NCBI GenBank assembly: GCA_947600335.1
Contig: CANQGB010000001.1
Span: forward strand, 2,443 to 66,442
DNA length: 64,000 bases
Source of the DNA: an uncultured Bacilli bacterium
GTDB taxonomy: Bacteria; Bacillota_I; Bacilli_A; RF39; UBA660
Reading direction: 5' to 3'
Part shown: piece after piece, positions 22,701 through 44,026 of the stretch
Layout of the letters: each line of letters starts with the position of its first letter
Numbering within the stretch: the first letter of the stretch is position 1
Translations under genes and position numbers: made by a program
Notes under the pieces: generated by a model
Databases searched by the model: none
Told to the model about the DNA's origin: nothing
Seen by the model: the letters and a program-made list of their open reading frames with translations, nothing else

Positions 22701-22754
22701 AACTTAACGATGCATCGTTGATCACAACTAATTTTACTAAATTGTCTCTCATTT

Positions 22755-22786
22755 AAAAAGTTAACGATGTGTCGTTAACTTTTTTA
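22755..22786. terminator. bidirectional terminator between lepB and the 143-aa gene
   Basis: AAAAAG-TTAACGATGTGTCGTTAAC-TTTTTT: a perfect palindrome flanked by A and T runs. Confidence 0.6.
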
Positions 22787-22808
22787 TAAATATCTAAAGT
22801 TAGTTTCT

Positions 22809-23240
22809 TTATTCTTCATCATCATGATGAGTATCATCTACTACTTTTTGAGCTCTAGCGCTGGTTATCTGAAATGGTAAAGTATTTAAGATTAATTCTG
22901 GTTCTTGATCGCTTGGTTCATTATCTAAAACTAAATCAGTAATTTTAAAAGTAGTTGATTTAGATTCTTGTAAAGCTTTAAAAGTAAAACCAATTTTTTT
23001 AGAACCTTGACCACCATTAATTTTACCTTCATAGATAATTTCACCAGGAGTAGAATTATCTACTTTGTTGGTTTTAAGTAAGCTAACAACTGAACCTTCA
23101 AGATACTCAAATATTTCCTCATTAAAGCTTAACTTAAATGAGGCACTACTAATTGGCTTATCAAGTACAAGTGATACTTGATTAGTTTCTAACACTCTTA
23201 TTAATGAAAATTGACTTGTTAATTTGGCATTTACATTCAT
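22809..23240 (-). CDS. hypothetical 143-aa protein, copy 1 of a duplicated paralog (acidic DDTHHDDEE tail)
   Basis: Intact ORF. A second copy with about 92% identity lies at 43332-43763. No family recognised. Confidence 0.5.
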   Translation of the reverse strand: MNVNAKLTSQFSLIRVLETNQVSLVLDKPISSASFKLSFNEEIFEYLEGSVVSLLKTNKVDNSTPGEIIYEGKINGGQGSKKIGFTFKALQESKSTTFKITDLVLDNEPSDQEPELILNTLPFQITSARAQKVVDDTHHDDEE

Positions 23241-23476
23241 AATATTCCATATCCTTTCTAATATAATTTTATTATAATAATCAGCTTAATTAAAAATTTT
23301 TAATTAAAGTTAACATTATAGTTGACAAAATATACTTGAGAAACCCCTAAAAATAAGGAAAAAAAGAGTAAATAATGCCCTAAATAATGTAAAAAGTGCA
23401 AAAAATGTAAAAAAATTTCAAAATATTCAAAATATCTGTTATAATATAGAAGAAATATTTAAGAAACGAAAGGAGG
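22810..23476. repeat. direct repeat copy 1 (about 670 bp: 143-aa gene plus divergent promoter region)
   Basis: Roughly 95% identical to 43331-43999. Confidence 0.85.
23417..23445 (+). promoter_or_regulatory. promoter in repeat copy 1 driving the glycan gene cluster (TTCAAA, 17 nt spacer, TGtTATAAT)
   Basis: Extended -10 with TG. Followed by a leader and then the GT2 gene at 23712. Confidence 0.45.
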
Positions 23477-23711
23477 ATAGTAATCATTGGTTTTTAATAA
23501 TTAACGATATAGGATATAAAAAGATTATAAAAAACTAAAAATGTAAATAATTACAATTTTTAAAACTGATATAAGTATTAAAAAAAATATTTTAAACTAT
23601 TTTCTGAAACCATGGAACAGCAAAATAAAAAGTAATAGAAAGGGTACAAAAGAAACCAGGAGATTATATGCTAAGTATTCCACATATAATTTTTTTTTAA
23701 GAAGGTGAAAT

Positions 23712-24566
23712 ATGAAAGTTGATATTATATGTCCATTATATAATGCTGAAAAGTATCTTAAAAAATTGCACGAATCATTTTTGAATCAAAAAAAGGTGAA
23801 TTTACATAAAATTAAATATATATTGACTGAAAGCAATGATTTTACATTAGACATATTAAAAAAATTAAAAAGCAATAAATGTGAATTTGTCTTAATAAAA
23901 AAAGAAGACTTTTCACACAGTTTAGTAAGAGAAAATGCTGCTTTTGAAAGCAAAGCGGATATAATTGTTTTTGTAACGCAAGATATTGAAATAAAAAACG
24001 ATAATTGGTTAGAAAATCTTGTAAAACCAATTGAGAAAGACAAAGTAGCTGCGACATATAGTAGACAACTAACAAAATATAATAATATTGAAAAATATAC
24101 TAGAGAAGCAAATTATCCAGAAAAGTCTTTAATAAAATCTAAAATAGACATTGATAAACTAGGATTAAAAACTTTCTTTTCATCCGATGCTTCTGCTGCA
24201 ATAAAAAGAGATATTTTTGTAGAACTTAATGGATACGATCATAAAGATTTGCCTATTAGTGAAGATATGTATTTTACCTATAAGCTTATTATGAGCGGCC
24301 ATAAAATAAAGTATTGTGCTGATTCAGTAATATATCATTCACATAATTTTACCTTAAGTGAAATTTATAATCGTTATAAATTAACAGGAGAATTTTTTAA
24401 AGAAAATAGTTACTTAGATAAATATGGAACTGATAGCTCAGGATTTACTCTAGCTAAATATGTTTTTAAAAGAATTATTCAAGAACATAGATTTACTCTT
24501 TTAATTAGATTCCCTTTTGATATGGGTGCTAGGTTAATTGGCATGAAAGTTGGGAAGTGGTTTTAA
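23712..24566 (+). CDS. glycosyltransferase family 2
   Basis: N-terminal DIICPLYNAEKYL, an internal DxD-type acidic region (SEDM), GT-A fold features. Confidence 0.65.
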   Translation: MKVDIICPLYNAEKYLKKLHESFLNQKKVNLHKIKYILTESNDFTLDILKKLKSNKCEFVLIKKEDFSHSLVRENAAFESKADIIVFVTQDIEIKNDNWLENLVKPIEKDKVAATYSRQLTKYNNIEKYTREANYPEKSLIKSKIDIDKLGLKTFFSSDASAAIKRDIFVELNGYDHKDLPISEDMYFTYKLIMSGHKIKYCADSVIYHSHNFTLSEIYNRYKLTGEFFKENSYLDKYGTDSSGFTLAKYVFKRIIQEHRFTLLIRFPFDMGARLIGMKVGKWF

Positions 24567-25799
24567 ATGATCGATTCAAATAAAAATGAACTAAAAAATA
24601 TTATCATTATTAATGATTTTGACTATGTACAAGGTGGAGCCAGTAAAGTTGCGATAGATACAGCAAATTCACTGGCTGAAAAAAATTATAATGTAATATT
24701 TTTTTGTGGAATATCAAGTTCCTTATCTCAACTAAATACAAAGGTAAAAAAAATATGTACCAATCAATACGAAGCTTTAAAAGATAAAAATCGAGTTCGA
24801 GGATTAATAAATGGGCTTTATAATTTTAAATCAGAAAAAATATTTAATAATTTATTAAAAGAATATGACAATAAAAATACTATTATCCATATCCATGGTT
24901 GGTCAAAATGTTTGTCTAGTAGTGTTATAAATGCTGGCTTTAAAAAAAAGTTTAAAATTGTATTGACTATGCATGATTACTTTACGGCATGTCCTAATGG
25001 TGGTTTTTTTAATTATCCAAAAAATGAAATTTGTAAATTGAAAGCATTATCTAGTAAGTGTATGATGTGTAATTGTGATTCAAGGAATTATTTATATAAA
25101 ATCTATAGGATAATAAGACAATTAATACAAAAAAATATTGTAAAATTAAACAAAAAAATAGAAAACGTTATATCAATATCTGATTTTAGTGAAAAAATAC
25201 TTAAGCCTTATCTTCCAAAAGATAAAGTAAATATTTATAGAGTATATAATCCAATTGAAATTATGAATGTTAAAAATGATATTAGTAAAAATCAATATTA
25301 CTTATTTGTTGGACGATTATCTCCTGAAAAAGGTGTGGAAACTTTTTGCAATGCAATTAGCAAAAGCAAGAAAAAAGGGATAGTTGTTGGAGATGGACCT
25401 GAAATGAAAAGATTGTCTTTAAAATATCCTGAAATAGATTTTGTTGGATGGAAAAATAAGCATGAGGTCGCTGATTATATGATTAAAGCAAAAGCATTAA
25501 TTTTCCCAAGTTTATGGTATGAAACAGTTGGCCTTACTTTACTTGAAGCCAATATGGTAGGCGTTCCTGGCATAGTAAGGAAAAATATTGCCACATCTGA
25601 ATTTGTACAAGATAATGTAAATGGCTTTTTATTTTCCAATGATGAAGATTTAATTAAAATATTGAAAAAATACGACACTATGTCTAAAGATACACTGTTA
25701 AATATGTCTAGATTAGCTAAATCAAATGCTAAAAATTATACTTATCAAAAATATATATATGATTTAGAAAAATGTTATAAAAATATAATTAATTCATAA
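24567..25799 (+). CDS. glycosyltransferase family 4 (GT-B)
   Basis: C-terminal EANMVGVPGIV...EFVQDNVNGFLF matches the GT4 E-x7-E motif region. Confidence 0.7.
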   Translation: MIDSNKNELKNIIIINDFDYVQGGASKVAIDTANSLAEKNYNVIFFCGISSSLSQLNTKVKKICTNQYEALKDKNRVRGLINGLYNFKSEKIFNNLLKEYDNKNTIIHIHGWSKCLSSSVINAGFKKKFKIVLTMHDYFTACPNGGFFNYPKNEICKLKALSSKCMMCNCDSRNYLYKIYRIIRQLIQKNIVKLNKKIENVISISDFSEKILKPYLPKDKVNIYRVYNPIEIMNVKNDISKNQYYLFVGRLSPEKGVETFCNAISKSKKKGIVVGDGPEMKRLSLKYPEIDFVGWKNKHEVADYMIKAKALIFPSLWYETVGLTLLEANMVGVPGIVRKNIATSEFVQDNVNGFLFSNDEDLIKILKKYDTMSKDTLLNMSRLAKSNAKNYTYQKYIYDLEKCYKNIINS

Positions 25800-25842
25800 T
25801 GTTGAAAATAAATTAAATTTTTATTTAAAGGAGGTAAAATTT

Positions 25843-27225
25843 ATGCTTTATCCATTTGCCTATATTTTATTTATCATTATTTTATATTTAATTTTAACTA
25901 GTAAAGATTTTGATTCATTATTTAAAAGATTTCTTTTATTAGAATGTTTCTTTAGTTGCTCAAGAATGAATATAGGATATTTAACTCATGTATTTAATTC
26001 TGAAATAGAGTACAATGATTTAATATTGGGCATAGTTTTTTGTCTATCAATAATACAAATATTTAGAAAGAGAAAGGTAAATAAAAAGGTTTTTAAATAT
26101 TCAATTATTTTAATAAGTGTTGTGTTAATTAGTATGTTAAATTGTTATTTGAATCCAGCGGCTATAGAAGTTGTAGGTTTTAATAGTAGTTTAGATAAAT
26201 ACTTTCGTGGTGACTTGTCACAATTAACTATGGTTCATTTTTCCATACAAAGCATAATGATGTTTGCAAGACTTATTATATTTATAACAATAATTAATGC
26301 TACAAAAGTATCTTTTTCAAAAGAAGAAATTTTAAATTTTTGTCAAAAGTTGTTGAAATATTTAAAAATTTTAATATTATATGGTTTATTTGAATTTATA
26401 ATAAAATTTATTTTTCATATTGATATCAGTACATATATATATGGTATTTTTGGACATGGTGTTTCTAGTCCCAATATAGTTAGTCGATTGTCGGGGTTAT
26501 CTAGAGAGCCAAGCTATTACTCATTAGCATTATTTATTTATCTATTTCTATCATTTTTATACAATCAATACTATAACAAAAATTTTAAAGTTAATGCTTG
26601 GATGATTTTAGCATTGTTTTTAGGATTTGTTTCAACCTCTTTTTCATTTGTTATTTGCTTTGTTTCTTTGACTTTATTATATATTAATAATTATCGTGAT
26701 TTTATGTTAACAGTTAAAAAAAAGAAACAACTGTTTAATATAATTTTTGGAATTTTATTAATTTCAGGGATTTTTATAATAGTAAATCAAAAATTCCTTG
26801 ATTTTGCTTTAGCTAGTAACTATACATCAATAAATAGGTTAGGTAATTCAATTATCCAAATAAAAAATGGCTTTAAAGGACTCTATATTTTAGGAAAAGA
26901 TTACTCTTCAGAAACTGTTAGGCTGATAGGGGCAATAATTGCTTTTAAAGCTGGTCTTCACCGCCCACTATTTGGTCTTGGCCTCGGCACCGTATATTGT
27001 GTAAATGGTGTTGTGTCAATAATATCTAATATTGGAATTTTAGGATTTATATGTTGGCTATTGCTTTTATTCAAAGGTTATACAAATAATATTAATTTTG
27101 TAGGAATTATTATAATATTACTAACTGTGCTTTTCTGTAACGATTTATATACGCTTTACGATGTGAGTTATGTAATTTTATTACCATTATATTCATTATA
27201 TTATGAAAATAGGAGGTTTAATTAA
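25843..27225 (+). CDS. O-antigen polymerase/ligase-like (Wzy family) membrane protein
   Basis: Ten or more transmembrane helices with a large periplasmic-type loop, 460 aa, located inside a glycan cluster. Confidence 0.55.
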   Translation: MLYPFAYILFIIILYLILTSKDFDSLFKRFLLLECFFSCSRMNIGYLTHVFNSEIEYNDLILGIVFCLSIIQIFRKRKVNKKVFKYSIILISVVLISMLNCYLNPAAIEVVGFNSSLDKYFRGDLSQLTMVHFSIQSIMMFARLIIFITIINATKVSFSKEEILNFCQKLLKYLKILILYGLFEFIIKFIFHIDISTYIYGIFGHGVSSPNIVSRLSGLSREPSYYSLALFIYLFLSFLYNQYYNKNFKVNAWMILALFLGFVSTSFSFVICFVSLTLLYINNYRDFMLTVKKKKQLFNIIFGILLISGIFIIVNQKFLDFALASNYTSINRLGNSIIQIKNGFKGLYILGKDYSSETVRLIGAIIAFKAGLHRPLFGLGLGTVYCVNGVVSIISNIGILGFICWLLLLFKGYTNNINFVGIIIILLTVLFCNDLYTLYDVSYVILLPLYSLYYENRRFN

Positions 27226-28356
27226 ATGAAAAAATGTATTGTATTTATTTCCATGAATACTAAAAAAGAGGGGGCAGAGAAATCTTTAATTTCTTTACAA
27301 AAATATTTAATTAATAGCAAGAATATTAAAACAATTACAATAATTCCAGAAAATGGTAAAATTGAAGAATTATTGAAAGAAAATAATATAGAATATATGA
27401 TCTGTAATTTTAGAAACTGCATAAATCTTAATAAAGGAAAACAATATATTAAAGGAAATCTAAAAAAAATATATAATCAAATTCAGGCAAAAAAATTAGC
27501 CAAAAAACTAAAAAAATATAATATTCAGATTGTTCATACTAATACATTAACCACTGATTTTGGCTATTATTTAGCAAAAGAATTAAATGCAAAACATATT
27601 TGGCATATCCGAGAATTAGCCAAAAAACAATTTAATTTTGATTTTGAATTAGGTAATGATTATATAATAAAATGCGTAAATCAGTCGTCAAAAATAATTT
27701 GTAACTCAGAATCAGTAAAAGAATATTATTCTAATTATTTTGATAAATCCAAAATTATTTGTGTTTATAATGGCGTAAGCACTGCAGAAAGCGGAAAAGA
27801 AGATTGGAATAATCCAAAATTTAAAATGGTTTTAGCAGGCCGCTTAAGTAGTGAAAAATGTCAAATGCTTGCAATAAAAGCATGTAAGATCTTAAAAGAA
27901 TCTAATTATAATAATTTTATATTAGATTTATACGGTGATGGAATTGATAAAGATATTTTAGAAAAAAATATAATTGATTTAAACTTAGAAAAATATATTA
28001 AATTAAAAGGCTTTTCCGATAATGTACCTTTTAAAAATTATCATTTAGGTTTAATGTGTAGTAGTAATGAAGCTTTTGGAAGAGTAACAGTAGAGTATAT
28101 GATGAATTCGCTTCCAGTTATAGGTGCTAATTCATTTGGAACAAAGGAGATTATTAAGGATAACATATCTGGCTATCTATTTAATGTTGATGATGCTAAA
28201 GATTTAGCAGATAAAATTATGATATTTTACAATAATCGAAAATTATGTCAAAAAATGGGAAAAGAAGGTAGAAAAATAGCATTGAGAAATTTTTCAGAAA
28301 ATAGCTATTGTGAAAATATTTATAAAATATATCAAAAAATTTTTTTGGAGGAATAG
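27226..28356 (+). CDS. glycosyltransferase family 4
   Basis: GT-B architecture. C-terminal EAFGRVTVEYMMNSLPVIGANSFGTKEII..GYLF. Confidence 0.7.
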   Translation: MKKCIVFISMNTKKEGAEKSLISLQKYLINSKNIKTITIIPENGKIEELLKENNIEYMICNFRNCINLNKGKQYIKGNLKKIYNQIQAKKLAKKLKKYNIQIVHTNTLTTDFGYYLAKELNAKHIWHIRELAKKQFNFDFELGNDYIIKCVNQSSKIICNSESVKEYYSNYFDKSKIICVYNGVSTAESGKEDWNNPKFKMVLAGRLSSEKCQMLAIKACKILKESNYNNFILDLYGDGIDKDILEKNIIDLNLEKYIKLKGFSDNVPFKNYHLGLMCSSNEAFGRVTVEYMMNSLPVIGANSFGTKEIIKDNISGYLFNVDDAKDLADKIMIFYNNRKLCQKMGKEGRKIALRNFSENSYCENIYKIYQKIFLEE

Positions 28357-28362
28357 ATAGAA

Positions 28363-29292
28363 ATGAATAAAATTAGTATAGTTATCACAACATTTAATGA
28401 TGAAAAAAATATTATCAATGTATTAAAAAATATATATGTTGACCAAAGTTATAAAGTTGATGAAATAGTAATTTGCGATGGTGGCTCAAAAGATAAGACA
28501 GTAAATGTTATTAAAAATTATTCAAAAGAAAATAAAATTAATATTAAATTAATATCTGATGGTAAGCGAAGAAATATTTCAGAAGGCCTAAATCAAGCTA
28601 TTAAAATGGCTACTAATTATTGGATTTTAATTATTGGAACAGGTAATAGTTATCAAAATGATTTTATCGAAAAAATAATAAATGCTCAGTCAAAACATAA
28701 AGTAGATCTAGTTTATGGGCCAATTTTAGGTATTGACAAAACTTTTTTTGGAAAAATTTTTAACCAATATTTTTTAAATGGTAATAAATCAATTGATATG
28801 GGGGCAAGTAATCATGGGGTGCTAATTAATAAAAAAATATTTGAAAAATATGGATATTTTTATGAAAAATTTATATATGCAGGAGAAGATACAGAATTTT
28901 ATATAAGGTTAAAAAATAATTTTGTAAAAGCTTATTATGAAAAAGAGGCTATTCTTTATTGGGATACACCTCAAACTGTAAATGAATATTTAAAAAAAAT
29001 GAGGGTTAATTCAATAGCTGATTGGCAAATATTTAAGCGTCGGAAAGTATGGATAAAAATCATCACCCCAATCATTCTTTTAATATTATACTCAATATTA
29101 GTTTTATTAAATCCGTGTTTTACATTATTAATCTTACCATTAATTGCATGTATTGCTGTAAAGAAGAGAACATTTAATATTTTAGCTATACTATTAGGAA
29201 TTATTACTAAGTATGTTATGGTGTATTATTATTTAAAAAATATAAAATATTCTAATTCAAAATATCATATTCAAAAAAATTATGAATTATAA
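28363..29292 (+). CDS. glycosyltransferase family 2 with C-terminal transmembrane anchor
   Basis: N-terminal ISIVITTFNDE..ICDGGSKD (GT-A DxD region) plus C-terminal transmembrane helices. Confidence 0.65.
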   Translation: MNKISIVITTFNDEKNIINVLKNIYVDQSYKVDEIVICDGGSKDKTVNVIKNYSKENKINIKLISDGKRRNISEGLNQAIKMATNYWILIIGTGNSYQNDFIEKIINAQSKHKVDLVYGPILGIDKTFFGKIFNQYFLNGNKSIDMGASNHGVLINKKIFEKYGYFYEKFIYAGEDTEFYIRLKNNFVKAYYEKEAILYWDTPQTVNEYLKKMRVNSIADWQIFKRRKVWIKIITPIILLILYSILVLLNPCFTLLILPLIACIAVKKRTFNILAILLGIITKYVMVYYYLKNIKYSNSKYHIQKNYEL

Positions 29293-29311
29293 ATAAGAGG
29301 AGTGGTAGTTT

Positions 29312-30526
29312 ATGAAATATTTGATATTAGGTGCTGGACCAGCAGGATTAACAGTCGCAAATAAATTAAAAGAATTAGGCGAAGAAGATTTTTTAGTTTT
29401 AGAAAAGGAAAATGAAGCTGGGGGATTATGTCGCTCCGTAATGGTAGATGGATCACCATTTGATATTGGTGGCGGCCATTTTTTAGATGTTAGGCGTGCA
29501 AATGTTAATAAATTTTTATTTAATTTTATGCCTGAAAATGAATGGAATTTATATGAACGAAATAGTCAAATTAAAGTAAATAATAATATAATAAATCATC
29601 CAATAGAAGCAAATATTTGGCAAATGAAAATTGAAGATCAAGTTGAATATCTAAAATCTATTGCAATAGCTGGATGTAATGTTGGGCAGCCGATGCCTAC
29701 AAAATTTACAGATTGGATATATTGGAAATTGGGAGCAAAAATAGCTGATGATTATATGATACCTTATAATCAAAAAATGTTTAGCAAAGAACTTGATGAA
29801 CTTGGTACATACTGGTTAGAAAAATTACCAAATGTTAGTTTTGAAGAAACACTATTGTCTTGTTTAGAAAAAAAAGCTTATGGTAAGCAACCAGGACACG
29901 CACAATTCTATTATCCTAAAAAATATGGCTATGGAGAATTATGGCTAAGAATGGCAAAAAATATAAACAATAAAATATTGTATGAAAAAGATGTCAATGA
30001 AATAAATTTTGATACATTAACTGTTATAACAAGCGATGGTGAAGAATATCAAGCCGAAAATATTATTACGACAATACCATGGATGGAATTTTCAAAAATC
30101 TATGGAATGCCTAAAGAAATAAAAGAATCAATAAGCAAATTAAAATATAGTTCTATTCAAACAGAATACTTTAATAATAGTTTAGATACTGATGCACATT
30201 GGATATATTATCCTGATCCTCAATTGCCTTATCATCGAATTTTAGTAAGGAGCAACTTTTGCACTAATAGTCGAGGATATTGGACAGAAACAAATTCTGA
30301 GCGAATAAATACAGAAATTCCAAATTCAAATTTTAAATATCTAAACAAATATGCTTATCCTTTAAATACAATAGACAAACCTGAAATAATGAAACGGTTA
30401 TTAGAATGGTGTAAAAATAAAAATGTTTATGGCTTAGGAAGATGGGGAGAGCACCAACATTATAATTCTGATGTTACAGTAGATTTAGCCCTTCAATTAA
30501 CTGATGATTTAATCAATAAAAATTAA
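29312..30526 (+). CDS. FAD/NAD(P)-binding oxidoreductase, UDP-galactopyranose mutase-like
   Basis: N-terminal ILGAGPAGL..LEKENEAGGLCRS dinucleotide-binding motif. Size and context suit a Glf-like enzyme. Confidence 0.45.
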   Translation: MKYLILGAGPAGLTVANKLKELGEEDFLVLEKENEAGGLCRSVMVDGSPFDIGGGHFLDVRRANVNKFLFNFMPENEWNLYERNSQIKVNNNIINHPIEANIWQMKIEDQVEYLKSIAIAGCNVGQPMPTKFTDWIYWKLGAKIADDYMIPYNQKMFSKELDELGTYWLEKLPNVSFEETLLSCLEKKAYGKQPGHAQFYYPKKYGYGELWLRMAKNINNKILYEKDVNEINFDTLTVITSDGEEYQAENIITTIPWMEFSKIYGMPKEIKESISKLKYSSIQTEYFNNSLDTDAHWIYYPDPQLPYHRILVRSNFCTNSRGYWTETNSERINTEIPNSNFKYLNKYAYPLNTIDKPEIMKRLLEWCKNKNVYGLGRWGEHQHYNSDVTVDLALQLTDDLINKN

Positions 30527-30573
30527 ATAAAATTATTTTTAAACAATCAAAAAAGGAAGGAATTAAAAACATC

Positions 30574-31629
30574 ATGAAAAAAAGAAATTCTTCAATAGAA
30601 TTATTGAAAATCATCGCAATTATATTAATTATTATTCAGCATAGTTGTCCCGTTTATGGAAATGTATCTGGGGGGGGGTATATTAATATAAAATATGCCA
30701 CTACAAATATTCAACAATTAATAATTAGTATTTTATCTTGTTTAGGAGAAATTGGAAATATTATATTTATAATGTGTTCTTCATGGTTTCTACTTGAAAA
30801 AAATAAAATAAATAGAAAAAAATTAATTCAAATAATATTAAATAGTTTAATAATTTCAATATTATATTTAGTCATTTTATCATTATTTGGTTTCCATTTT
30901 AATAAAGTATTAATTATCAAACAATTTTTGCCAATAACAATGAAAAATAATTGGTTTATAGGATGTTATTTATTATTTTATATGCTCACCCCATATTTAA
31001 ACATTATTATAAAAAATATTGATAAAAAAAATTTGCAAAATATTAACATAGTTTTATTTATTTTGTATAGTGGATTTTACTTTGTTTTAGGCAATAATGC
31101 GTACTATTTTAATGAATTAATTGGATTTATCTATATTTACTTAATAGTGGCATATGTAAAAATGTATATGTTAGATTTTCAAAAAAACATAAGTTTAAAT
31201 AAAAAATTATTAATATTCAGTTTAATCGGTTTTATAGGTTCTATGTTACTTACAAATTATATTGGATTATCTATTCCTTTATTATCTTCTAAATTAATGC
31301 ATTGGAATAAATTAACAAATCCATTTTATCTTTTATTTAGCATAAGTTTGCTAAACATATTTAAAAATAGAAATTTTTACAATAAAACTATTAATTATAT
31401 TTCATCATTATCATTAATAATATATTTAATACATGAAAACATTCTTTTTCGAGATTATATCAGACCAATATTTTATAATAGTGTGTTTAAATACCAAAAA
31501 TATATATTATGGATTTTTATTGAAATTATATTATTGATATTGTATTCATTAATACTATCAATTATCTATAATAAAACAGTTCAAAAATTTTTAAATTATA
31601 TAATTGAAAAAAAATTAAAATTTGAATAA
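30574..31629 (+). CDS. acyltransferase family 3 (O-acetyltransferase) membrane protein; contains an in-frame G9 tract
   Basis: Polytopic, with the acyltransferase-3 N-terminal pattern (LKIIAIILIIIQHS). G9 at 30670-30678 encodes GGG. Confidence 0.6.
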   Translation: MKKRNSSIELLKIIAIILIIIQHSCPVYGNVSGGGYINIKYATTNIQQLIISILSCLGEIGNIIFIMCSSWFLLEKNKINRKKLIQIILNSLIISILYLVILSLFGFHFNKVLIIKQFLPITMKNNWFIGCYLLFYMLTPYLNIIIKNIDKKNLQNINIVLFILYSGFYFVLGNNAYYFNELIGFIYIYLIVAYVKMYMLDFQKNISLNKKLLIFSLIGFIGSMLLTNYIGLSIPLLSSKLMHWNKLTNPFYLLFSISLLNIFKNRNFYNKTINYISSLSLIIYLIHENILFRDYIRPIFYNSVFKYQKYILWIFIEIILLILYSLILSIIYNKTVQKFLNYIIEKKLKFE

Positions 31630-31705
31630 ATTTAAGTTTCATTTTAGCACTTTAAATATATTATTAATTTTTGATGAAAAATATTATTTATTTGGAGGTT
31701 ATAAA

Positions 31706-32599
31706 ATGTATAATATTGGAGTTATCATATTAAACTATTTAGCATATCAAGCAACAATGGATACAATTGCTTCATTTAAAAAACAAAAAACTAAGGGAAT
31801 GAATGTAAAATATGTTATTGTTGATAATTGCTCAAATAATAATTCTTATTTAGAATTAAAGAAGAAATATAAAAATTGTGAAGATATTATTGTTGTTAAA
31901 GCAGATAAAAATTTAGGCTTTGCAAATGGGAATAATTTAGGTTATAAAACATTATTAAAATTTATGAATCCTGATTTTGTAATTATATCTAATGATGATA
32001 TTTTAATTGAAAATAATTCGTTATTTACATGGCTTATTGAGTGTTTTGATAAATATCATTATGCTGTCTTAGGACCTGACATTTATTCTATTAATGGAAA
32101 ATTTCATCAAAGTCCAGTTATTCCAAACGATACGAATGTATTAAAATGTTATAAGCAACTTATTCGCTATAAAATGAGTAAAATAAAAGGCCAAATAAGA
32201 AAATTATTGAATCAGCCTTCTCCATATGTTGGCTATCCATCATGGGATAATCGATATTATAAAGAATTTCATAATGATATGGCATTACATGGCTCATTTC
32301 AAATTTTCTCAAAATTATATTTTGATGTCTATTCAGAGCCTTATGATCCTTCAACATTTTTATATATGGAAGAAGATATATTGTTTTTACGGTGTAAAAT
32401 GTCTGTGGGGGGGGGGTTAAAAATGGTATATGATCCGAGTTTTCAAATTAAACATTTGCAAGCTGTTTCAACTAATATGATAAACTCAACTAACTATGAT
32501 AAAGAAATTTTTAGAAAAACACAATTGATTAAATCTATGAATATATATATTCATGTTTTAAAAAAAATGAAAAAAGAAGCATCTTGCAAATTTAAATAA
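31706..32599 (+). CDS. glycosyltransferase family 2; contains an in-frame G10 tract
   Basis: N-terminal IGVIILNY..VDNCSNN GT-A motif. RBS TGGAGG upstream of the ATG at 31706. G10 at 32407-32416. Confidence 0.6.
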   Translation: MYNIGVIILNYLAYQATMDTIASFKKQKTKGMNVKYVIVDNCSNNNSYLELKKKYKNCEDIIVVKADKNLGFANGNNLGYKTLLKFMNPDFVIISNDDILIENNSLFTWLIECFDKYHYAVLGPDIYSINGKFHQSPVIPNDTNVLKCYKQLIRYKMSKIKGQIRKLLNQPSPYVGYPSWDNRYYKEFHNDMALHGSFQIFSKLYFDVYSEPYDPSTFLYMEEDILFLRCKMSVGGGLKMVYDPSFQIKHLQAVSTNMINSTNYDKEIFRKTQLIKSMNIYIHVLKKMKKEASCKFK

Positions 32600-32629
32600 T
32601 TAAAAAAATAAAATATAATAAATGTAGAT

Positions 32630-34090
32630 ATGGTGGGAATAATGAAACAAAAATCAATTAAATTAAATTCTATTTTTAATATTTTAAGACAAGTATGTGC
32701 AATGTTATTTCCTATAATTACTTTTCCATATGTTTCTAGAATATTACAATCTGAAAATTATGGAAAAGTTAATTTTGTAAATTCAGTAGTTAGTTATTTT
32801 ATATTACTTGCAAGTTTAGGAATCAATAGTTATGCAATTCGTGAAGGTTCACCGTTAAGGAAGAATAAACAACAATTTCAAGAATTTGCTAATCAAATAT
32901 TTACAATAAACATGCTTTCAACTCTAATATCATATATTTTGCTGATATTATTATTTTTATTTTGGAAAAAGCTTAATTCATATGGGAGTCTTGTTTTAAT
33001 ATTAAGTTTAACAATAATTTCTTGGAATATTGGAGTAGAATGGCTATATTCAATTTATGAAGATTTTGGATATATAACATTTCGAAGTATTGTAGTACAA
33101 ATTATATCATTAGTATTATTATTTGTTTTTGTTAGATCAAAGGATGATTATTTAATTTATGCAGCTATTTTAGTATTATCAACTGGTGGAGCTAATTTAT
33201 TTAATTTTATTCATGCAAAAAAATACATACGTCTTCATATTACTAAAAGCCCAAATATAAAAAGACATATTATTCCAATGTTAATCTTATTTTGCAATTC
33301 TTTAATGACAACAATTTATGTAAATTCAGATATTACGATTCTTGGCATACTTCGTAATGATATTGAAGTTGGAGAATATAGTGTTGCTGTTAGAATATAT
33401 TCAATAATTAAAAGTATTCTTAATGCTATGTTAGTTGTTACACTACCAAGACTTTCTTTTTATGTAAATACTGGTGATAAGGAACATTATGACATTCTTT
33501 CTAAAAAAACTTTAAAATCATTATTAATAATTGTTTTTCCAGCAGTAGTAGGCCTTCTTATGGTAAGCCCTGATATTGTTTTAATATTAGTAGGGAATAA
33601 TTACTCTAATGTAATATTACCATTACGTTTATTAAGTATTGCTCTTGCTTTTACACTAATTGGTTCGTTTTTTGTTTCTGCGGTTTTAATACCACACAAA
33701 AAGGAAAAATTAGTTTTATATTGTACTATTGTCAGTGCAGTTATTAATTTAATTCTTAATTTTATTTTAATTCCTAAATTTGGGATGGTAAGTGCTGCAA
33801 TTACTACTATTATCGCTGAGTGTATTGTTATGATAATGGCAATATGCTTTTCAAGAGGTATTTTTTCATTTAAGGGATATAAGAAAAATATTATTGAAAT
33901 TTTAATTGGAATAGTTTTAATAGTAATTATATGTATACTAGTTGATTTAATTCATGCTAATGTATTTATTGATTTAATTATGAAAATTGTTTTTTCTTGT
34001 ATTTTTTATGGAATGGTATTATTGTTTACCAAAAATGAAATTTTCTATGAATTGAGTAATGAAATTAAAAAAAAATTTTTAAAGAGGTAG
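32630..34090 (+). CDS. Wzx-type polysaccharide flippase (MOP superfamily)
   Basis: Twelve or more transmembrane helices. N-terminal ILRQVCAMLFPIITFPYVSRIL matches the polysaccharide biosynthesis protein family pattern. Confidence 0.65.
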   Translation: MVGIMKQKSIKLNSIFNILRQVCAMLFPIITFPYVSRILQSENYGKVNFVNSVVSYFILLASLGINSYAIREGSPLRKNKQQFQEFANQIFTINMLSTLISYILLILLFLFWKKLNSYGSLVLILSLTIISWNIGVEWLYSIYEDFGYITFRSIVVQIISLVLLFVFVRSKDDYLIYAAILVLSTGGANLFNFIHAKKYIRLHITKSPNIKRHIIPMLILFCNSLMTTIYVNSDITILGILRNDIEVGEYSVAVRIYSIIKSILNAMLVVTLPRLSFYVNTGDKEHYDILSKKTLKSLLIIVFPAVVGLLMVSPDIVLILVGNNYSNVILPLRLLSIALAFTLIGSFFVSAVLIPHKKEKLVLYCTIVSAVINLILNFILIPKFGMVSAAITTIIAECIVMIMAICFSRGIFSFKGYKKNIIEILIGIVLIVIICILVDLIHANVFIDLIMKIVFSCIFYGMVLLFTKNEIFYELSNEIKKKFLKR

Positions 34091-34096
34091 TTTTAT

Positions 34097-35182
34097 ATGA
34101 TAGAAAATAATAAAAAAAGAATGTCCTTTCTTGATATAGCTAGAGGTATAGCTATAATTCTTATGGTATGTGGACATTGTGAAACATCCGGGGGGGGGGT
34201 TATTGAAAAATTTGTTAATTTATTTAGTATGTCCGTTTTTATTTTTATAAGTGGATATTTATTTAAAGATAAAAAATTTAATAATATTAGAGAACTTTTT
34301 AAATATATAGTTCATAAAGCAAAAAAATTATATTTATTTTATTTAAAATATGAATTACTATTTTTGGCATTGACAAACATATTCTTTAAAATTGGATTTT
34401 ATAGTTCAGAAATAAGTTATAGTGGTAAATTTATTTACCCAATAAATTCATTAAAAATAGTATTACAAAAAATTATTGAAATAGTTTTAGGCATGGGTAG
34501 AGAACCTTTTTGTGGAGCATTTTGGTTTATAATTTCTTTAATATTTATAATTTTTGGTTATTCAATTATACAATATATAAGTTATAAGCAAAATATTCTG
34601 AATAAAAAATTATGTGAAAAAATTGCAGTTATTATATGTTTCATAATTGGATGCCTAATGCAAGCAACTATAAATATACCAAGGGTTGCTCCAGCTTTTA
34701 CTTTAATGTTAGTCTATGATTTAGGAAATGAAGCATATATCAATAGAGAAAAAATTAAATTTAATAATTACATTTTAATGATTATTTGCTTTATTTTATT
34801 ATTAATCTTAAATAATTTTGGTAAAATTAGTATGAACAGTAATGAATTTACAAATCCGCTATACTTTATTATTTGTTCTTTAGCTGGAATATATTTTGTA
34901 ATTGCCATTTCAAATTTTATATTGGAAAAAACAAATAAAATAGCCAAAGTTTTAGAATATATTGGGAGAATAACTCTTGAAATAATGGCATGGCATTTTA
35001 TCGGTTTTAAAATTGCCATGTTGATACAACTTATATTTAAACATGTCGCATTTCCAGATTTAGCATACTTAAAAGGATACAATAATTCAAATTTATGGTA
35101 TTTTGTTTATATAATGTGTGGAATTGGATTACCAGTTATGATATCAAGTATCAAAAAAAAACTAGCTTCAAAAACTTGTTAA
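34097..35182 (+). CDS. acyltransferase family 3 membrane protein; contains an in-frame G10 tract
   Basis: Polytopic. N-terminal LDIARGIAIILMVCGH. G10 at 34190-34199 encodes GGG(V). Confidence 0.55.
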   Translation: MIENNKKRMSFLDIARGIAIILMVCGHCETSGGGVIEKFVNLFSMSVFIFISGYLFKDKKFNNIRELFKYIVHKAKKLYLFYLKYELLFLALTNIFFKIGFYSSEISYSGKFIYPINSLKIVLQKIIEIVLGMGREPFCGAFWFIISLIFIIFGYSIIQYISYKQNILNKKLCEKIAVIICFIIGCLMQATINIPRVAPAFTLMLVYDLGNEAYINREKIKFNNYILMIICFILLLILNNFGKISMNSNEFTNPLYFIICSLAGIYFVIAISNFILEKTNKIAKVLEYIGRITLEIMAWHFIGFKIAMLIQLIFKHVAFPDLAYLKGYNNSNLWYFVYIMCGIGLPVMISSIKKKLASKTC

Positions 35183-35479
35183 TATTTTAGAAATTATATC
35201 ATAAATTACAGTATTGAAAAATTGCAATTCTTATGTTAATTATTATATACAATATTAATCGTGAAATAAAAAGTTAAATTCTAGTTTTTAAAGAAAGAAA
35301 AAAATGAACAAGAAAGTTCCAAAAAAGGGACTTTTTTTGCTAGATGTAGAAAAAGAAAAAATAAGATATAATATATTTATCCAGTAAAAAATTTTATTGC
35401 ATACAAAAGGACAACAGAAAGCTGGATTTAAAAAAATATAAAAATAAATTTCTGTTGAGAATAAGTGCAAAAAATTATT

Positions 35480-35990
35480 TTAATGGATGCTTCTATAAAT
35501 ATATTTACTACTTTTTAGTTTTGTAAATATTTTAAGAGATAATGTTTTAGAATAACATTACCTATGTCAATTTTATTAACTCCAATTATAAGGAGTCTTG
35601 CCATTTAAAGACTCACGAAGAGTATAATTGATATGATCACAATAGAAAATATTTAATCTCATTTCTCCGGTATTTGGGTTCAAGTATAAGTTGAAAATCA
35701 TGTAAAGAATTAGACATAGCTTCAGATGTTTTTTTGATTTAATTTACCAAGCATTAAAGAAATATCTTCAAAATAAAAAGTTTGAATATAAGGATCAGAA
35801 TAAGAATTAAAACGGTATCCATTTCAGTAGTTTTAACTTTGGTTTATCTAATTTAAATTTTTCATAGTCTTTGAAATTATGTCTATCATAGTTTAAAGGA
35901 TCTTTCTTTTTTTTATATTTGTTTTTAAAATCTTTTCTTTTAAAGAAAGATTAATTAGTCTTCATTTCTAAAAACACCTTCATTAATATA
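35480..35990 (-). pseudogene. degenerate transposase/integrase remnant (fragmented frames)
   Basis: The minus-strand frame around 35590-35640 encodes a GKTPYNW-like peptide reminiscent of rve-type integrase core motifs. No intact ORF. The interval is about 900 bp of non-coding sequence between acyltransferase genes. Confidence 0.25.
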
Positions 35991-36022
35991 ATGATATAAG
36001 CTACTAAAAAGGATGTTTGTAG

Positions 36023-36051
36023 TTGACAAAGTCTGGGGGGGGGGTTATAAT
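36023..36051 (+). promoter_or_regulatory. sigma-A promoter whose 17-nt spacer contains a G10 homopolymer (candidate phase-variable promoter)
   Basis: TTGACA at 36023-36028, spacer aagtctGGGGGGGGGGt, TATAAT at 36046-36051. The ATG of the downstream gene lies 29 nt further on. Confidence 0.6.
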
Positions 36052-36080
36052 TACTTTAATCTTTTAAAGGATGATTAAGT

Positions 36081-37196
36081 ATGACCAAAAGTAAAAGAAA
36101 TTCCACTCTAGAAATATTAAGAATTATATCTATGCTTCTGATTATTATGCATCACTATTCTGTACATGGTTTTGAATTAATGAATTTACCACTTGCTTTA
36201 AATAAATTTATTGTTGGTTTTCTTTCATTAGGGGGAAAATTAGGAGTATCATGTTTTATTTTAATATCAGGATATTACATGATTGATTCTAAATTTACAT
36301 TGCAAAAGTTTTTAAAATTAGTTGGGGAAATATGGTTTTATTCAATTTCAATGTTAATTTTATTTTTAACAGTATTGAATCCTGTTGAGCTTAATATGAA
36401 ATTGATAATATCCAGTATTTTTCCTTTATTATCTAGTTTTTATTGGTTTATGACCGCCTATGTTTTGCTAATGATTCTTAGTCCTATTTTAAATTTAATA
36501 ATTAATAATATAGGTAAATGTTTACATGAAAATCTAATTATTTTTTCTATATTAATATGGTCATTTTTACACAATTTTTTAAATTTTGAACTTTATTATA
36601 ATGATTTTATATGGTTTATAGTTCTTTATTTTATAGCAGGTTATTTAAAGAAATATCCAAAAAGAAAAACAAAAAAACATTTTCTTAAAGCTTTTATATC
36701 GTATTTAATAATTATAATTAGTGATATTTTATTAATATATATTGGTAGTAAATATAATATAAATTATCTAGTGGAAAAAAGTGCTCATTTTTCAGAATTA
36801 AATAGCCCATTTATTTTATTTTCTTCTATTGAATTGTTTTTAGGTTTTTCTAATTCAAAGCCATTTAATAATAAAATAGTAAACAATGTAGCTAGCACAA
36901 CACTTGGTATATACCTTATTCATGATAATAGAATAATGCGTCCTTTTTTATGGAATACAATATTTAATAATTCCAAAATGTTTTTTTCCAATTTTTTATT
37001 ATTGCATTCTATTTTTTCTGTTTTAATTGTATTTATTTTTTGCATGATAATCGATTTAATTCGGCAAAATACAATTGAAAAATTATATTTAAAAATTTTA
37101 AATAAGTTTTTAATAAAGATTAAATTATTTTTAGAAAAAATTATTTTAAAAATAAAAAATTTATTTTTTGCAAATAAACTTACTAACCAAAATTAA
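36081..37196 (+). CDS. acyltransferase family 3 membrane protein
   Basis: Polytopic. N-terminal LEILRIISMLLIIMHHYSVH is the acyltransferase-3 pattern. Confidence 0.6.
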   Translation: MTKSKRNSTLEILRIISMLLIIMHHYSVHGFELMNLPLALNKFIVGFLSLGGKLGVSCFILISGYYMIDSKFTLQKFLKLVGEIWFYSISMLILFLTVLNPVELNMKLIISSIFPLLSSFYWFMTAYVLLMILSPILNLIINNIGKCLHENLIIFSILIWSFLHNFLNFELYYNDFIWFIVLYFIAGYLKKYPKRKTKKHFLKAFISYLIIIISDILLIYIGSKYNINYLVEKSAHFSELNSPFILFSSIELFLGFSNSKPFNNKIVNNVASTTLGIYLIHDNRIMRPFLWNTIFNNSKMFFSNFLLLHSIFSVLIVFIFCMIIDLIRQNTIEKLYLKILNKFLIKIKLFLEKIILKIKNLFFANKLTNQN

Positions 37197-37423
37197 TATT
37201 TTTTTTAATTATTAAAATTAATATCTTTAGACTGCCGAAATCAGACCTATTAATAGGCCATTTTTTAATTATATAACTGAATAGCTAGAAAAATGTGAAA
37301 TCATCTAATAATTTAATATTTTACGAAAATGTGATAAAATAGCATAATTTTCAAGCAAAAGTGTGATAATTCTATTAAAATTCTCTGCAAAAGTGTGATT
37401 TAATATAATCAAAAGGTGATAAA

Positions 37424-38353: not shown

Positions 38354-38564
38354 AAATAACTAATATAGACAAAAGTTATTCCAGTACACTGGAATAACTT
38401 TTGAAATTAAACAAATATATTATTATAGTATACAAAGTCAATTGGATATATCTAGCACAACTAAAAAATTATATGTCTAAATAACTTGTTTTTAATCCCC
38501 AAAAATATTATAATCATAGCAAACACATGGAAATAAACTCGAAAAATTTAGAAAGTAGGATTAT

Positions 38565-40124
38565 ATGTTAAGTCGGAAAATGTTTGAACGCATCAATTGG
38601 TATAAAAAAGAATATATTCATGATTATTATTCGCGAATCATCATAGATTTTAAGGACTATGAAAAAATATCTCGTACCAAAATGCTTGAAGAAGTATATA
38701 AGGTTTATGATAACCCGGAAAATATTTTAGATATATGTACTTTCAAAGAATTAAAGTACTTACAAATGATAATTGAAAACTCCAAACCAATGCCTGAATT
38801 GTTAGACTCTAAATATGATTGGGAAAGAGATATGCTTCATAAAAAATTTTTAATTCAAGATGATTTTAAGGTTGTGTTTATTCCTGATGAAATAATAGAT
38901 CAAGTAAAGAAAGCTTTAGCCATAGTTGATTGGTCTAAAGTCAAAAAAGCAGACGAAATAAATGAAATAGCGGTTAGCTATTGCAAAATGTTAGGTTCAA
39001 CTATATTTTATCAAGTATGCACCATTACCTCTAGTATTACTGGAATTAATGACGAAGAAGTCTTTAATCATTTAAATCATAATCGGCTTTTTAAATTTTA
39101 TGTATATGTCTATAATAAAGATTTCCAACATCTAAATCAAACTCTGCCTGTTGCTTTATATAATGATTATTATACTATCGGTAATGAAATTGAAACTGAA
39201 AGAAAAAAGCAAGGCATTAAAGCGGTGCCTTCTCTTGATGTAGAATTTTTAAAGAGATATTTTTATAATGACTTTGATATAAAAAATCCTAAAATTGCTA
39301 AATTTATCAAAGAAATAAAAAAGCTTCCTATATTATGGCACGATGCTTTGCGTATTGTTAGAGAATATGCCATCTTAAATATCGATAGAACTCCCTTAAA
39401 ACAATCTTTTAAAGATGTACCTAGTTTACAAAAACATAATTTAACTTCTTTTTTTCATACTTTAGATGAAGCTATGGATGAAATGCCATCAGGTGCTTTA
39501 AATGGCTTAACACCTAACCAAGCTAAAAATTATCGAATGGAACAAGAACAAATAAAGCATGACAAAGAACAAAACTATATTAAACAACAAAATGCTTGCT
39601 TATCGAAAAAAGATGCCGACTTATTTTATAAAATCTATTTTGCTTTATTAGAATTTACAAATAAAAAATTTCAAATTAAAAAAGATTTAAAAATATATCA
39701 ACAAAATCACCTTAATCCTCATGATTTAACTAATATTATTGCAAAATTTTGGGAAAATAAAGAAACTTTAACCCAAGAATTTTGTCAAACTAATCCTTAT
39801 AAATTTAATTCTGAAGAATTAGATATTACCTCAAATTTTCAAAAAGGTTTCAGAGGACATTTTATCGTTGTCAAATTTGAAGAAGAATATACTGCTGTAA
39901 TGGATAAAGATAAAACTTATATGATTAAAGGGATAAACGATAATATTGATAACATTCTTTCGTATCAAAACCTCCCTGTAGTTGTTACAACATCTATTAT
40001 TCCTTTTAAAAATTTTTTAATCTATGATGGAATTTTTTACGAATTTAGTATAAGTCTCGGTTCTAATTTTACTAATATGATTAACCAAGATTTTCAAAAA
40101 TCTTTAAAATATTATCATCTTTAA
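38565..40124 (+). CDS. hypothetical 519-aa protein, no recognisable domain
   Basis: Intact ORF, immediately upstream of and co-oriented with the helicase gene. Confidence 0.4.
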   Translation: MLSRKMFERINWYKKEYIHDYYSRIIIDFKDYEKISRTKMLEEVYKVYDNPENILDICTFKELKYLQMIIENSKPMPELLDSKYDWERDMLHKKFLIQDDFKVVFIPDEIIDQVKKALAIVDWSKVKKADEINEIAVSYCKMLGSTIFYQVCTITSSITGINDEEVFNHLNHNRLFKFYVYVYNKDFQHLNQTLPVALYNDYYTIGNEIETERKKQGIKAVPSLDVEFLKRYFYNDFDIKNPKIAKFIKEIKKLPILWHDALRIVREYAILNIDRTPLKQSFKDVPSLQKHNLTSFFHTLDEAMDEMPSGALNGLTPNQAKNYRMEQEQIKHDKEQNYIKQQNACLSKKDADLFYKIYFALLEFTNKKFQIKKDLKIYQQNHLNPHDLTNIIAKFWENKETLTQEFCQTNPYKFNSEELDITSNFQKGFRGHFIVVKFEEEYTAVMDKDKTYMIKGINDNIDNILSYQNLPVVVTTSIIPFKNFLIYDGIFYEFSISLGSNFTNMINQDFQKSLKYYHL

Positions 40125-40161
40125 TATAGAGAAAATAAAAAGGAAGTAGGTTGTTACATTA

Positions 40162-43281: not shown

Positions 43282-43289
43282 GAATAAAA

Positions 43290-43325
43290 AAACTAAGAAT
43301 TTAAAATAATTTTTTCTTAGTTTTT
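43290..43325. terminator. bidirectional terminator hairpin between the helicase gene and the 143-aa gene, copy 2
   Basis: AAAAAACTAAGAA-N-TTCTTAGTTTTT. Confidence 0.5.
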
Positions 43326-43330
43326 CCCAT

Positions 43331-43999
43331 ATTATTCTTCATCATCATGATGAGTATCATCTACTACTTTTTCTGCTTCAGCCCCAGTTACCTGAAACGG
43401 TAAAGTATTTAAGATCAATTCTGGTTCTTGTTTACTCGGTTCATTGTCTAAAACTAAATCAGTGATTTTAAAAGTAGTTGATTTAGTTTCTTGTAAAGCT
43501 TTAAAAGTAAAACCGATCTTTTTAGAACCTTGACCACCATTAATTTTACCTTCATAGATAATTTCACCAGGAGTAGAATTATCAACTTTGTTAGTTTTAA
43601 GTAAGCTTACAACTGAACCTTCAAGATACTCAAATATTTCCTCATTAAAACTTAATTTAAATGAGGCACTACTGATTGGCTTATCAAGCACAAGTGATAC
43701 TTGATTAGTATCAAGCACTCTGATTAATGTAGATTGAGAAGTTAATTTTGCATTTACATTCATAATATTCCATGTCCTTTCTAATATAATTTTACTATAA
43801 TAATCAGCTTAATTAAAAATTTTTAATTAAAGTTAACATTATAGTTGACAAAATATCCTTGAGAAACCCCTAAAAATAAGGAAAAAAAGAGTAAATAATG
43901 CCCTAAATAATGTAAAAAGTGCAAAAAATGTAAAAAAATTTCAAAATATTCAAAATATCTGTTATAATATAAAAGAAATATTTAAGAAACGAAAGGAGA
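43331..43999. repeat. direct repeat copy 2
   Basis: About 95% identical to 22810-23476. Confidence 0.85.
43332..43763 (-). CDS. hypothetical 143-aa protein, copy 2 of the duplicated paralog
   Basis: About 92% aa identity to the gene at 22809-23240. Confidence 0.5.
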   Translation of the reverse strand: MNVNAKLTSQSTLIRVLDTNQVSLVLDKPISSASFKLSFNEEIFEYLEGSVVSLLKTNKVDNSTPGEIIYEGKINGGQGSKKIGFTFKALQETKSTTFKITDLVLDNEPSKQEPELILNTLPFQVTGAEAEKVVDDTHHDDEE

Positions 44000-44026
44000 C
44001 TTGCTAACCATTGTCAAGTCTTTTTT
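43998..44026 (+). terminator. terminator hairpin immediately after the repeat-borne promoter
   Basis: GACTTG-CTAACCATTGT-CAAGTC followed by T6. Confidence 0.5.

Follow-up and report, generated by a model that had tools for sequence, protein, structure and literature searches.

A direct repeat pairing a predicted cohesin-like gene with an outward promoter-like region brackets a 20-kb glycan and helicase segment in an uncultured Bacilli bacterium

Introduction

No parts of gut bacterial genomes change more readily than the genes for surface glycans and defense, and repeats that flank variable capsule loci are already well known as a general principle. In Haemophilus influenzae type b (Hib), the duplicated cap cluster occurs with the insertion sequence (IS) IS1016 (PMC2267795). 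In Bacteroides, several capsule loci are present per genome, and a conserved regulatory module with upxY/upxZ as small paralogous genes opens each of them (PMC11685472). In this study, we describe a variant of this theme in an uncultured Bacilli bacterium of the rabbit gut. The stretch analyzed (the window) comprises 64,000 nt of contig CANQGB010000001.1 (assembly GCA_947600335.1, positions 2,443 to 66,442). Within it, two direct copies (A and B) of a 667-bp repeat, each composed of a gene for a 143-aa protein (the small gene) and a non-coding half, bracket a segment of approximately 20 kb that holds a glycan locus and a helicase gene.

Based on the anatomy of the repeat and a comparison with a related strain, we consider it likely that the copies represent a lineage-specific, multi-copy module, which, in a hypervariable surface and defense island, would combine the roles of portable expression unit and homology tract. 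One part of this module would be the small gene, equipped with a promoter of its own and a palindromic operator and encoding a stand-alone cytoplasmic cohesin-like protein. The other part would be an outward promoter and a ribosome-binding site (RBS) driving whichever cargo adjoins, which is glycan locus 1 for copy A and a DUF4143 ATPase gene for copy B. The gene halves would be old paralogs held by purifying selection, and the promoter halves would be kept nearly identical within the genome through gene conversion. As direct repeats with identical runs of up to 114 bp, the modules could moreover offer homology tracts for RecA-type recombination, through which cassettes might be gained, lost, and swapped in the island. 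Read in this manner, the locus would show a concrete organization of genomic change in an uncultured lineage, with one unit giving promoter, RBS, and homology. It would also illustrate cleanly how gene conversion can be confined to a regulatory segment, and it brings out an unnamed family of predicted cytoplasmic stand-alone cohesin-like proteins.

Similar to Hib cap, a glycan cluster of approximately 18–20 kb lies between direct repeats, an arrangement that allows copy-number change or loss by homologous recombination. Unlike IS1016, the repeats described here have no transposase, terminal inverted repeats, or target duplication and carry a cohesin-like gene and promoter-like sites. Furthermore, the bracketed segment here also holds helicase and ATPase genes, and its amplification or loss is a possibility read from the sequence; for the Hib cap locus, recA-dependent amplification and loss were reportedly described in the work of Kroll and Moxon and of Hoiseth. 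Similar to the Bacteroides capsule loci, the locus has a shared 5' module that includes a promoter-like region and a small paralogous gene. However, the small gene here is divergent, cohesin-like in prediction, and without a NusG or KOW domain, neither inverted repeats nor an invertase that could flip the promoter is present, and the module also fronts non-glycan cargo.

Cassette-type loci can be swapped through conserved flanks, as with galF–gnd and its JUMPstart in Escherichia coli and dexB–cpsABCD...aliA in pneumococci. The present locus resembles such O-antigen and capsule loci in its hypervariable glycan core and its conserved promoter-bearing bounds, with the full content differing between related strains. 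In contrast to them, its left flank is an intragenomic multi-copy repeat, and exchange would therefore be possible both within and between genomes.

Anatomy of the direct repeat

Copies A (22809–23475) and B (43332–43998) align over 667 bp with 0 indels and 40 mismatches (94.0% identity), as determined by a repeat scan, MAFFT alignment, and an ungapped register scan, and their starts are offset by 20,523 bp. The 100 bp outside each repeat edge are 34% and 29% identical, which corresponds to background; the identity of the repeat is thus far above chance, in DNA that is AT-rich (22–34% GC). An earlier reading of the window from its letters and open reading frames (the original prediction) had placed the limits within 1 bp of these at each end and estimated the identity as about 95%, close to the measured value. 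It had also described a diverged 143-aa paralog and a divergent promoter region in each copy, and the open reading frames (ORFs) and the alignment bear this out. The minus-strand 143-aa ORF is 91.7% identical between the copies at the nucleotide level and 94% at the amino acid level, and the adjoining 235-bp intergenic half is 98.3% identical (4 mismatches). The left limit of homology coincides exactly with the stop codon of the small gene, and the right limit coincides with the ribosome-binding motif GAAAGGAG. The longest perfect runs between the copies are 114, 65, and 61 bp.

The non-coding half contains a palindrome and two divergent promoter-like sites separated by an A-rich stretch (Table 1). 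The 22-bp palindrome has two matches in the window, compared with 0.01 expected, and it is kept upstream of every promoter-proximal small-gene copy in the related strain. The predicted start of the leftward small-gene promoter falls at the palindrome edge, and the palindrome is a putative operator. The outward promoter-like site, with its extended −10 TGTTATAAT, is exact in both window copies and in both full promoter-half copies of the related strain. Promoter activity in both directions is putative and read from consensus and conservation. The GGAGG of the module lies 7 nt ahead of the first glycan gene in the related strain (NTP_transferase, L001, start 9287). The module would therefore supply a promoter, a short leader, and an RBS to the adjacent gene, and by this spacing its GGAGG is evidently the working RBS of that gene. 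In the window, the distance beyond the module to the cargo is 236 nt from copy A to glycan locus 1 and 213 nt from copy B to the ATPase gene.

The original prediction had alternatively taken the repeats as a promoter module that starts two glycan loci. This holds for copy A, which fronts glycan locus 1, but not for copy B, which fronts a DUF4143 ATPase gene. A different leader (47092–47349 and 60062–60320; 260 bp, 96% identical) is shared by glycan loci 2 and 3. Since these two loci thus share a 5' module of their own, the theme of a shared 5' module appears to be general in this island.

Several known types of element were considered and rejected. An invertible-promoter switch does not fit, as the only inverted matches are the central palindrome and weak AT-rich ones, and no serine or tyrosine recombinase gene is adjacent. 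For an IS or composite transposon, the repeat encodes the cohesin-like protein only, lacks a transposase and terminal inverted repeats, and has unrelated flanks. For an UpxY/NusG-type antiterminator, the small protein has no NusG or KOW match, its predicted fold is cohesin-like, and its gene is transcribed away from the locus. Rfam models at gathering thresholds identified a single tRNA in the whole window and nothing in the repeat.

At the 3' side of each small-gene copy lies a hairpin of its own, composed of an A-run, a stem, and a T-run (22700–22808 and 43282–43331), and the two are unrelated to each other. They look like bidirectional terminators common to the convergent neighbor, lepB or the helicase gene, and were not called by a consensus scan because their stems are AT-rich.

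Comparison with a related strain

The same region was compared in a related strain (GCA_947630615.1, loci L001, L005, and L025). The landmark order is the same as in the window: lepB side, glycan locus, helicase gene, small gene, ATPase gene, and IS110. Window positions 38459–43850 align to L005 17083–11689 with 94.5% identity, and positions 43828–46924 align to L005 4027–931 with 96.5% identity. Glycan locus 1 (23485–37315) has no nucleotide similarity to the locus of the related strain; similarity reaches as far as the module edge at 23484 on the left and begins again on the right at 37316 and 38459.

Additionally, a 7.66-kb block present in the related strain is missing from the window. Besides a Fic gene, it carries two additional copies of the small gene and genes for two large Big_2/Flg_new surface proteins. 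The breakpoints on both sides lie within TTAAARTTAACAT, a segment of the module that the related strain has at each end of the block. Moreover, a tandem small-gene pair occupies the place where the window has the single copy A. The full promoter half fronts the glycan locus and the ATPase gene in the related strain, a diverged partial module copy precedes the surface-protein genes, and the module copy divergent from the Fic gene has the own promoter of the small gene only.

Within the block, the Fic-domain gene lies at L005 10524–11579 and the Big_2/Flg_new repeat surface-protein genes lie at 4075–9159; the Fic gene and the first surface-protein gene are each back-to-back with a small-gene copy.

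Collectively, these differences support the view that cassettes were added, removed, and replaced at the modules in past recombination. The original prediction had suggested comparing related strains for presence or absence of the 20-kb segment. The comparison gave landmarks in the same order, a replaced glycan locus, and a separate 7.66-kb indel, and no 20-kb variant was seen.

Possible turnover of the bracketed segment

One contig from an independent sample (L022, ERZ27060145; 1769 nt, 2.3× k-mer coverage) joins the two modules in a different way. Its left part holds the 3' end of the helicase gene and a B-type small gene, with 39/39 discriminating sites of the B type. From 23449 onward, it is A-type at 25/25 sites, including 35 nt of the unique right flank of copy A, and the switch lies inside the 114-bp identical run. 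This junction is as expected from an excised circle or a tandem duplication, and it may also be a chimera or a fixed alternative gene order.

An active RecA crossover between the copies would excise the 20.5-kb segment as a circle or amplify it in tandem, with on/off or dosage variation as the outcome. The B-left/A-right junction of L022 is the circle or tandem junction that this explanation predicts, and the three longest identical runs exceed the lengths known to support RecA recombination (minimal efficient processing segments). As at Hib cap, direct repeats that are long and similar enough lie on both sides (667 bp, 94.0%, longest run 114 bp). However, the junction occurs in a single contig of low coverage with 62 nt on the A side, and De Bruijn assemblers can join a shared edge and a short stub to the wrong contig. 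The reciprocal deletion junction, between the lepB side and the ATPase side, was not found when P0001, the ATPase, and the first glycosyltransferase were looked up. Within its first 100 nt, L022 also carries 19 differences from the window and thus comes from another strain, in which a different gene order may be fixed. Taking both sides together, we regard active variation as rather unlikely.

The original prediction had presented the repeats as substrates for RecA-mediated deletion or amplification. Their role as a recombination substrate gains indirect support from the concerted pattern of the promoter half (7 sites versus 0, see below), the module-bounded indels, and L022; deletion or amplification of the 20-kb segment itself in any population would be a putative outcome.

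Unequal histories of the two halves

The two halves of the repeat differ in apparent age. Between small genes A and B, synonymous divergence (dS) is 0.29 and the ratio of nonsynonymous to synonymous divergence (dN/dS) is 0.15, whereas the adjoining non-coding half differs at 1.7% of sites. Codons 23–108 contain 11 synonymous changes and 1 nonsynonymous change. These values indicate that the small genes of the window are old paralogs under purifying selection and not a recent duplication. Consistent with this, gene copy A over its first 70 nt shares 98.6% identity with the lepB-side copy of the related strain (R2) and 85.7% with copy B; since identity over this stretch follows position, each gene copy appears to have its own ortholog.

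The promoter half behaves differently. Over the 154 bp that could be compared, the related strain has two full copies, one upstream of the glycan locus and one upstream of the ATPase gene. Copies A and B of the window are identical at 152/154 positions, and the two copies of the related strain are identical at 151/154, compared with 144/154 (93.5%) for the positional orthologs in both pairs. Among the variable sites, 7 fit a concerted pattern and 0 follow position. This distribution points to gene conversion confined to the promoter half, and we read it as the signature of promoter halves homogenized within each genome. The unequal ages of the halves, the multi-copy nature of the cohesin-like family, and the evidence that the pair is not a recent duplication had been missed by the original prediction.

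Dispersed bacterial duplicates such as tufA/tufB and the rRNA operons undergo concerted evolution by gene conversion. Similarly, the within-genome copies here are closer to each other than to their positional orthologs. In contrast to those duplicates, conversion here would be limited to a non-coding promoter half, and the coding halves stay distinct.

Strong purifying selection alone might also produce near-identity of the intergenic halves, which would then be regulatory paralogs without a recombination history. In agreement with this, the −35, the extended −10, the palindrome, and the RBS are invariant among the copies. However, 10 of the 154 positions differ between the strains and are thus free to change, 7 of these 10 changed in parallel within a genome and 0 by position, and the module-bounded indels indicate past recombination at the same place. 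An origin through selection alone consequently seems improbable to us.

A predicted cohesin fold for the small protein

The 143-aa proteins of the window have no match in Pfam, NCBIfam, or PADLOC. Among 5.8 billion proteins, their close relatives form 12 clusters, none named and all from metagenome-assembled genomes of rabbit-gut Bacilli. Six GTDB species representatives carry the small gene, with one match each and in unrelated surroundings; the window has two copies, and this region of the related strain has five. In Joint Genome Institute (JGI) metagenomes, a protein search found no relatives, and the exact promoter pattern gave 0 matches. Viral contigs likewise showed no relatives of the protein and no sign of a phage-borne module. 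Contigs L007 and L008, which stem from other samples, encode a protein identical to that of copy A.

Searching 1.8 billion representatives with a profile brought in the distant small proteins P0013, P0016, P0020, P0021, and P0022, with links from the window family at E values of 3.6e-27 to 2.6e-6. Giant repeat proteins from this search (P0014 and similar) were set aside as apparent compositional matches to acidic repeats. Three distant relatives match the Pfam Cohesin model (PF00963) with E values of 1e-6 to 2e-4; its cut-off of 24.1 bits is passed only by P0016 (29.3 bits), P0013 and P0020 fall just below, and the window proteins themselves do not reach it. A profile search of the PDB with the small protein returned one weak match, 2w1n (E 0.1).

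Modeling by AlphaFold2 (AF2) with the 12 close homologs alone reached a predicted local distance difference test (pLDDT) score of 38, and this score rose to 88.5 once the distant relatives from the profile search were added. The resulting model is all-beta, with 10 strands in residues 1–122 and a low-confidence tail. In a Foldseek search of the PDB, the top matches were the Clostridium perfringens non-cellulosomal cohesins 2vo8, 2w1n, and 2jh2 (E 1e-8 to 3e-7, template modeling (TM) score 0.59–0.66), the best being 2vo8 (E 1.2e-8, TM 0.66), and many type II cohesins came next. By model and structural match, the small protein is thus assigned a cohesin fold.

In its predicted fold, the small protein resembles non-cellulosomal cohesins from the C. 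perfringens GH33/GH84 toxin complexes (2vo8, 2jh2, 2w1n) and from Archaeoglobus fulgidus (2xdh). Unlike these, it is a stand-alone protein of 143 aa without a signal peptide, enzyme, or scaffoldin, and it scores below the Pfam threshold. No signal peptide or hydrophobic N-terminus was seen in its sequence, and it is therefore probably a stand-alone cytoplasmic cohesin-like protein. Among the window genes, no dockerin was identified.

An 18-residue stretch (codons 119–136; 22833–22886 and 43356–43409, minus strand) connects the fold to the acidic tail. Across the five single-copy species compared, this stretch is invariant at the protein level, with nonsynonymous (pN) and synonymous (pS) differences per site of 0 and 0.28. 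Among the seven paralogs of the two multi-copy strains, pN is 0.22 and pN/pS is 0.81; the numbers behind this comparison are small and the pairs are not independent. The variability of these codons could reflect relaxed constraint or paralog-specific adaptation.

A broader reading combines these observations. The expanded cohesin-like paralogs would be locus-specific adaptors or regulators, and the module would be a portable unit of promoter and specificity protein that coordinates the choice of expressed surface cassette. This would make it a Firmicute analogue, built on a cohesin fold, of the UpxY/UpxZ cross-regulation in Bacteroides, with the repeats also shuffling cassettes. The reading draws on the diversification of codons 119–136 after the family grew from one to up to five copies and on the position of each copy back-to-back with a different surface, toxin, or defense operon, with a palindromic operator common to the copies. 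At present, we offer it as speculation to which we give little credence.

An association of the small gene with a SipW-type peptidase was also considered and ruled out, as the neighbors differ in every species. In one single-copy species (L009, CANRPF010000025.1, 1977–5045), the small gene follows an operon of three genes, encoding a 166-aa secreted-type protein, a 363-aa membrane-embedded S26 (SipW-like) peptidase, and a DUF5305 protein. Copy A in the window adjoins lepB, and the peptidase association fails in other species.

Weighing the explanations

Several points weigh against the view of the repeats as a portable module and homology tract. The promoters are consensus matches, and shuffled sequence gives about as many. 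A trans-acting factor that co-evolves with both promoter copies could mimic the concerted pattern. The comparison covers two strains, and the indels are without polarity, so that they may be gains or losses. Furthermore, the single-copy species show no constant link between the small gene and glycan genes, and the gene and the outward promoter may have become paired in this lineage by accident. L022, with its 2.3× coverage and 62 nt past the switch, is possibly a graph artifact. The analysis covered assembled contigs, and what it shows are differences between strains and not present-day heterogeneity. With these points taken into account, we still consider the portable module the likely explanation.

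A plain recent segmental duplication, in which the copies would be mere paralogs and the bracketing of the 20 kb accidental, accords with two direct copies free of indels, but we hold it to be very improbable, as a dS of 0.29 in the gene and 1.7% divergence in the non-coding half are incompatible with one event, part of each gene copy is more similar to a gene of the other strain than to its partner, homology ends exactly at the stop codon and the RBS, and the related strain has five copies.

The contig might also be misthreaded or collapsed at the repeat, with a bracket that is absent from any cell. In favor of this, the window derives from an 87.8-kb contig of a short-read metagenome bin, and other assemblies break exactly at these repeats. 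However, contigs from independent samples support the arrangement. L007 is 99.99% identical to 21864–28821 and spans copy A with both flanks. L014 is 100% identical to 42620–43850 and holds the helicase end and the left side of copy B, an order also present in L022. L015 is 99.3% identical to 43917–47199 and runs from the promoter half of copy B through the ATPase gene to IS110. Moreover, a collapsed repeat is excluded because the copies differ at 40 sites, and the related strain keeps the landmark order. On these grounds an assembly artifact is barely credible, in agreement with the original prediction, which had argued against one from point differences between the gene copies.

Genes in and around the bracketed segment

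The features of the repeat copies and of the segment between them are listed in Table 1.

Table 1. Positions of the repeat copies, their elements, and adjacent genes in the window
Feature	Position	Strand	Description
Small gene, copy A, 143 aa	22809..23240	−	ORF; residues 1–122 predicted cohesin-like beta-sandwich, acidic C-terminal tail
Regulatory half, copy A	23241..23475		Common to small gene (leftward) and cargo operon (rightward); 98.3% identical to 43764–43998
Perfect 22-bp palindrome TTAATTAAAAATTTTTAATTAA	23286..23307		Core of 52-bp imperfect palindrome; putative operator just downstream of small-gene −10
Small-gene promoter-like site, TTCTCA-16-TATAAT	23315..23342	−	Consensus scan, pattern match only; kept in single copies of other species
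Outward promoter-like site, extended −10, TTCAAA-17-TGTTATAAT (TTCAAA-17-TGnTATAAT)	23417..23445	+	Consensus scan; faces cargo genes
Ribosome-binding motif GAAAGGAG	23468..23475	+	Right edge of repeat, ~25 nt past outward promoter-like site
Glycan locus 1	23712..37196	+	Pfam: GT2, GT4, 460-aa polytopic membrane protein, GT4, GT2, FAD oxidoreductase, three Acyl_transf_3, GT2, Wzx-type flippase
Truncated DUF4143/AAA_14 ATPase, 309 aa	37424..38353	+	Pfam, PADLOC PDC-S01; most of AAA_14 missing after first ~30 residues
519-aa gene	38565..40124	+	No family match (Pfam, PADLOC, NCBIfam); adjoins helicase gene in related strain too
Helicase IV-like UvrD-family helicase, 1039 aa	40162..43281	+	Pfam, NCBIfam; inserted nuclease-like segment, C-terminal zinc ribbons
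Small gene, copy B, 143 aa	43332..43763	−	94% aa identity to copy A; exact protein on contig L014
Regulatory half, copy B	43764..43998		Palindrome 43809–43830, outward promoter-like site 43940–43968; faces ATPase gene
DUF4143/AAA_14 ATPase, 425 aa from ATG	44212..45489	+	Downstream of copy B outward promoter-like site; exact protein on L015
IS110-family transposase gene	45486..46697	−	Pfam; outside repeat; same place in related strain (96.5% block, 43828–46924)

The original prediction had counted 12 glycan genes in the segment; based on Pfam matches and an ORF gap, the count is corrected to 11 intact glycan ORFs and an IS remnant. The gap is a 900-bp stretch without a long ORF (35183–36080), and in it a 41-aa minus-strand fragment (35576–35701) resembles the C-terminal end of a transposase and was read as the IS remnant.

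The nuclease motif in the helicase insert was read from the sequence only, and the helicase has more than 3000 homologous proteins at E ≤ 1e-100. The genes for the 519-aa protein and the helicase (38565–43281) form a pair that is syntenic in the related strain and may be a defense or repair unit. Three DUF4143/AAA_14 genes (37424–38353, 44212–45489, and 58832–60046) follow the glycan blocks, one after each, and all three match the PADLOC candidate defense family PDC-S01. The truncated first gene differs in position from the full-length copy of the related strain. Exact-protein look-ups of the 430-aa reading of the ATPase (GTG start), the locus-3 Alg14-like protein, and the window helicase found none of them on record.

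A second direct-repeat pair, 12.97 kb apart, comprises the leader of loci 2 and 3 together with Alg14-like and Alg13/GT28_C-like genes (48414–49360 versus 60350–61296, 95% identical). In locus 2, an epimerase gene (47344–48393) is inserted between the leader and Alg14. The single leader of the related strain is 96.7% identical to the locus-3 copy, compared with 91.9% for the locus-2 copy.

Finally, a 962-aa ORF at 2484–5372 has a pilin-type N-terminal methylation motif and five 234-nt (78-aa) tandem repeats (3600–4835) with 71–79% identity, and it probably encodes a repetitive surface or pilus-associated protein.

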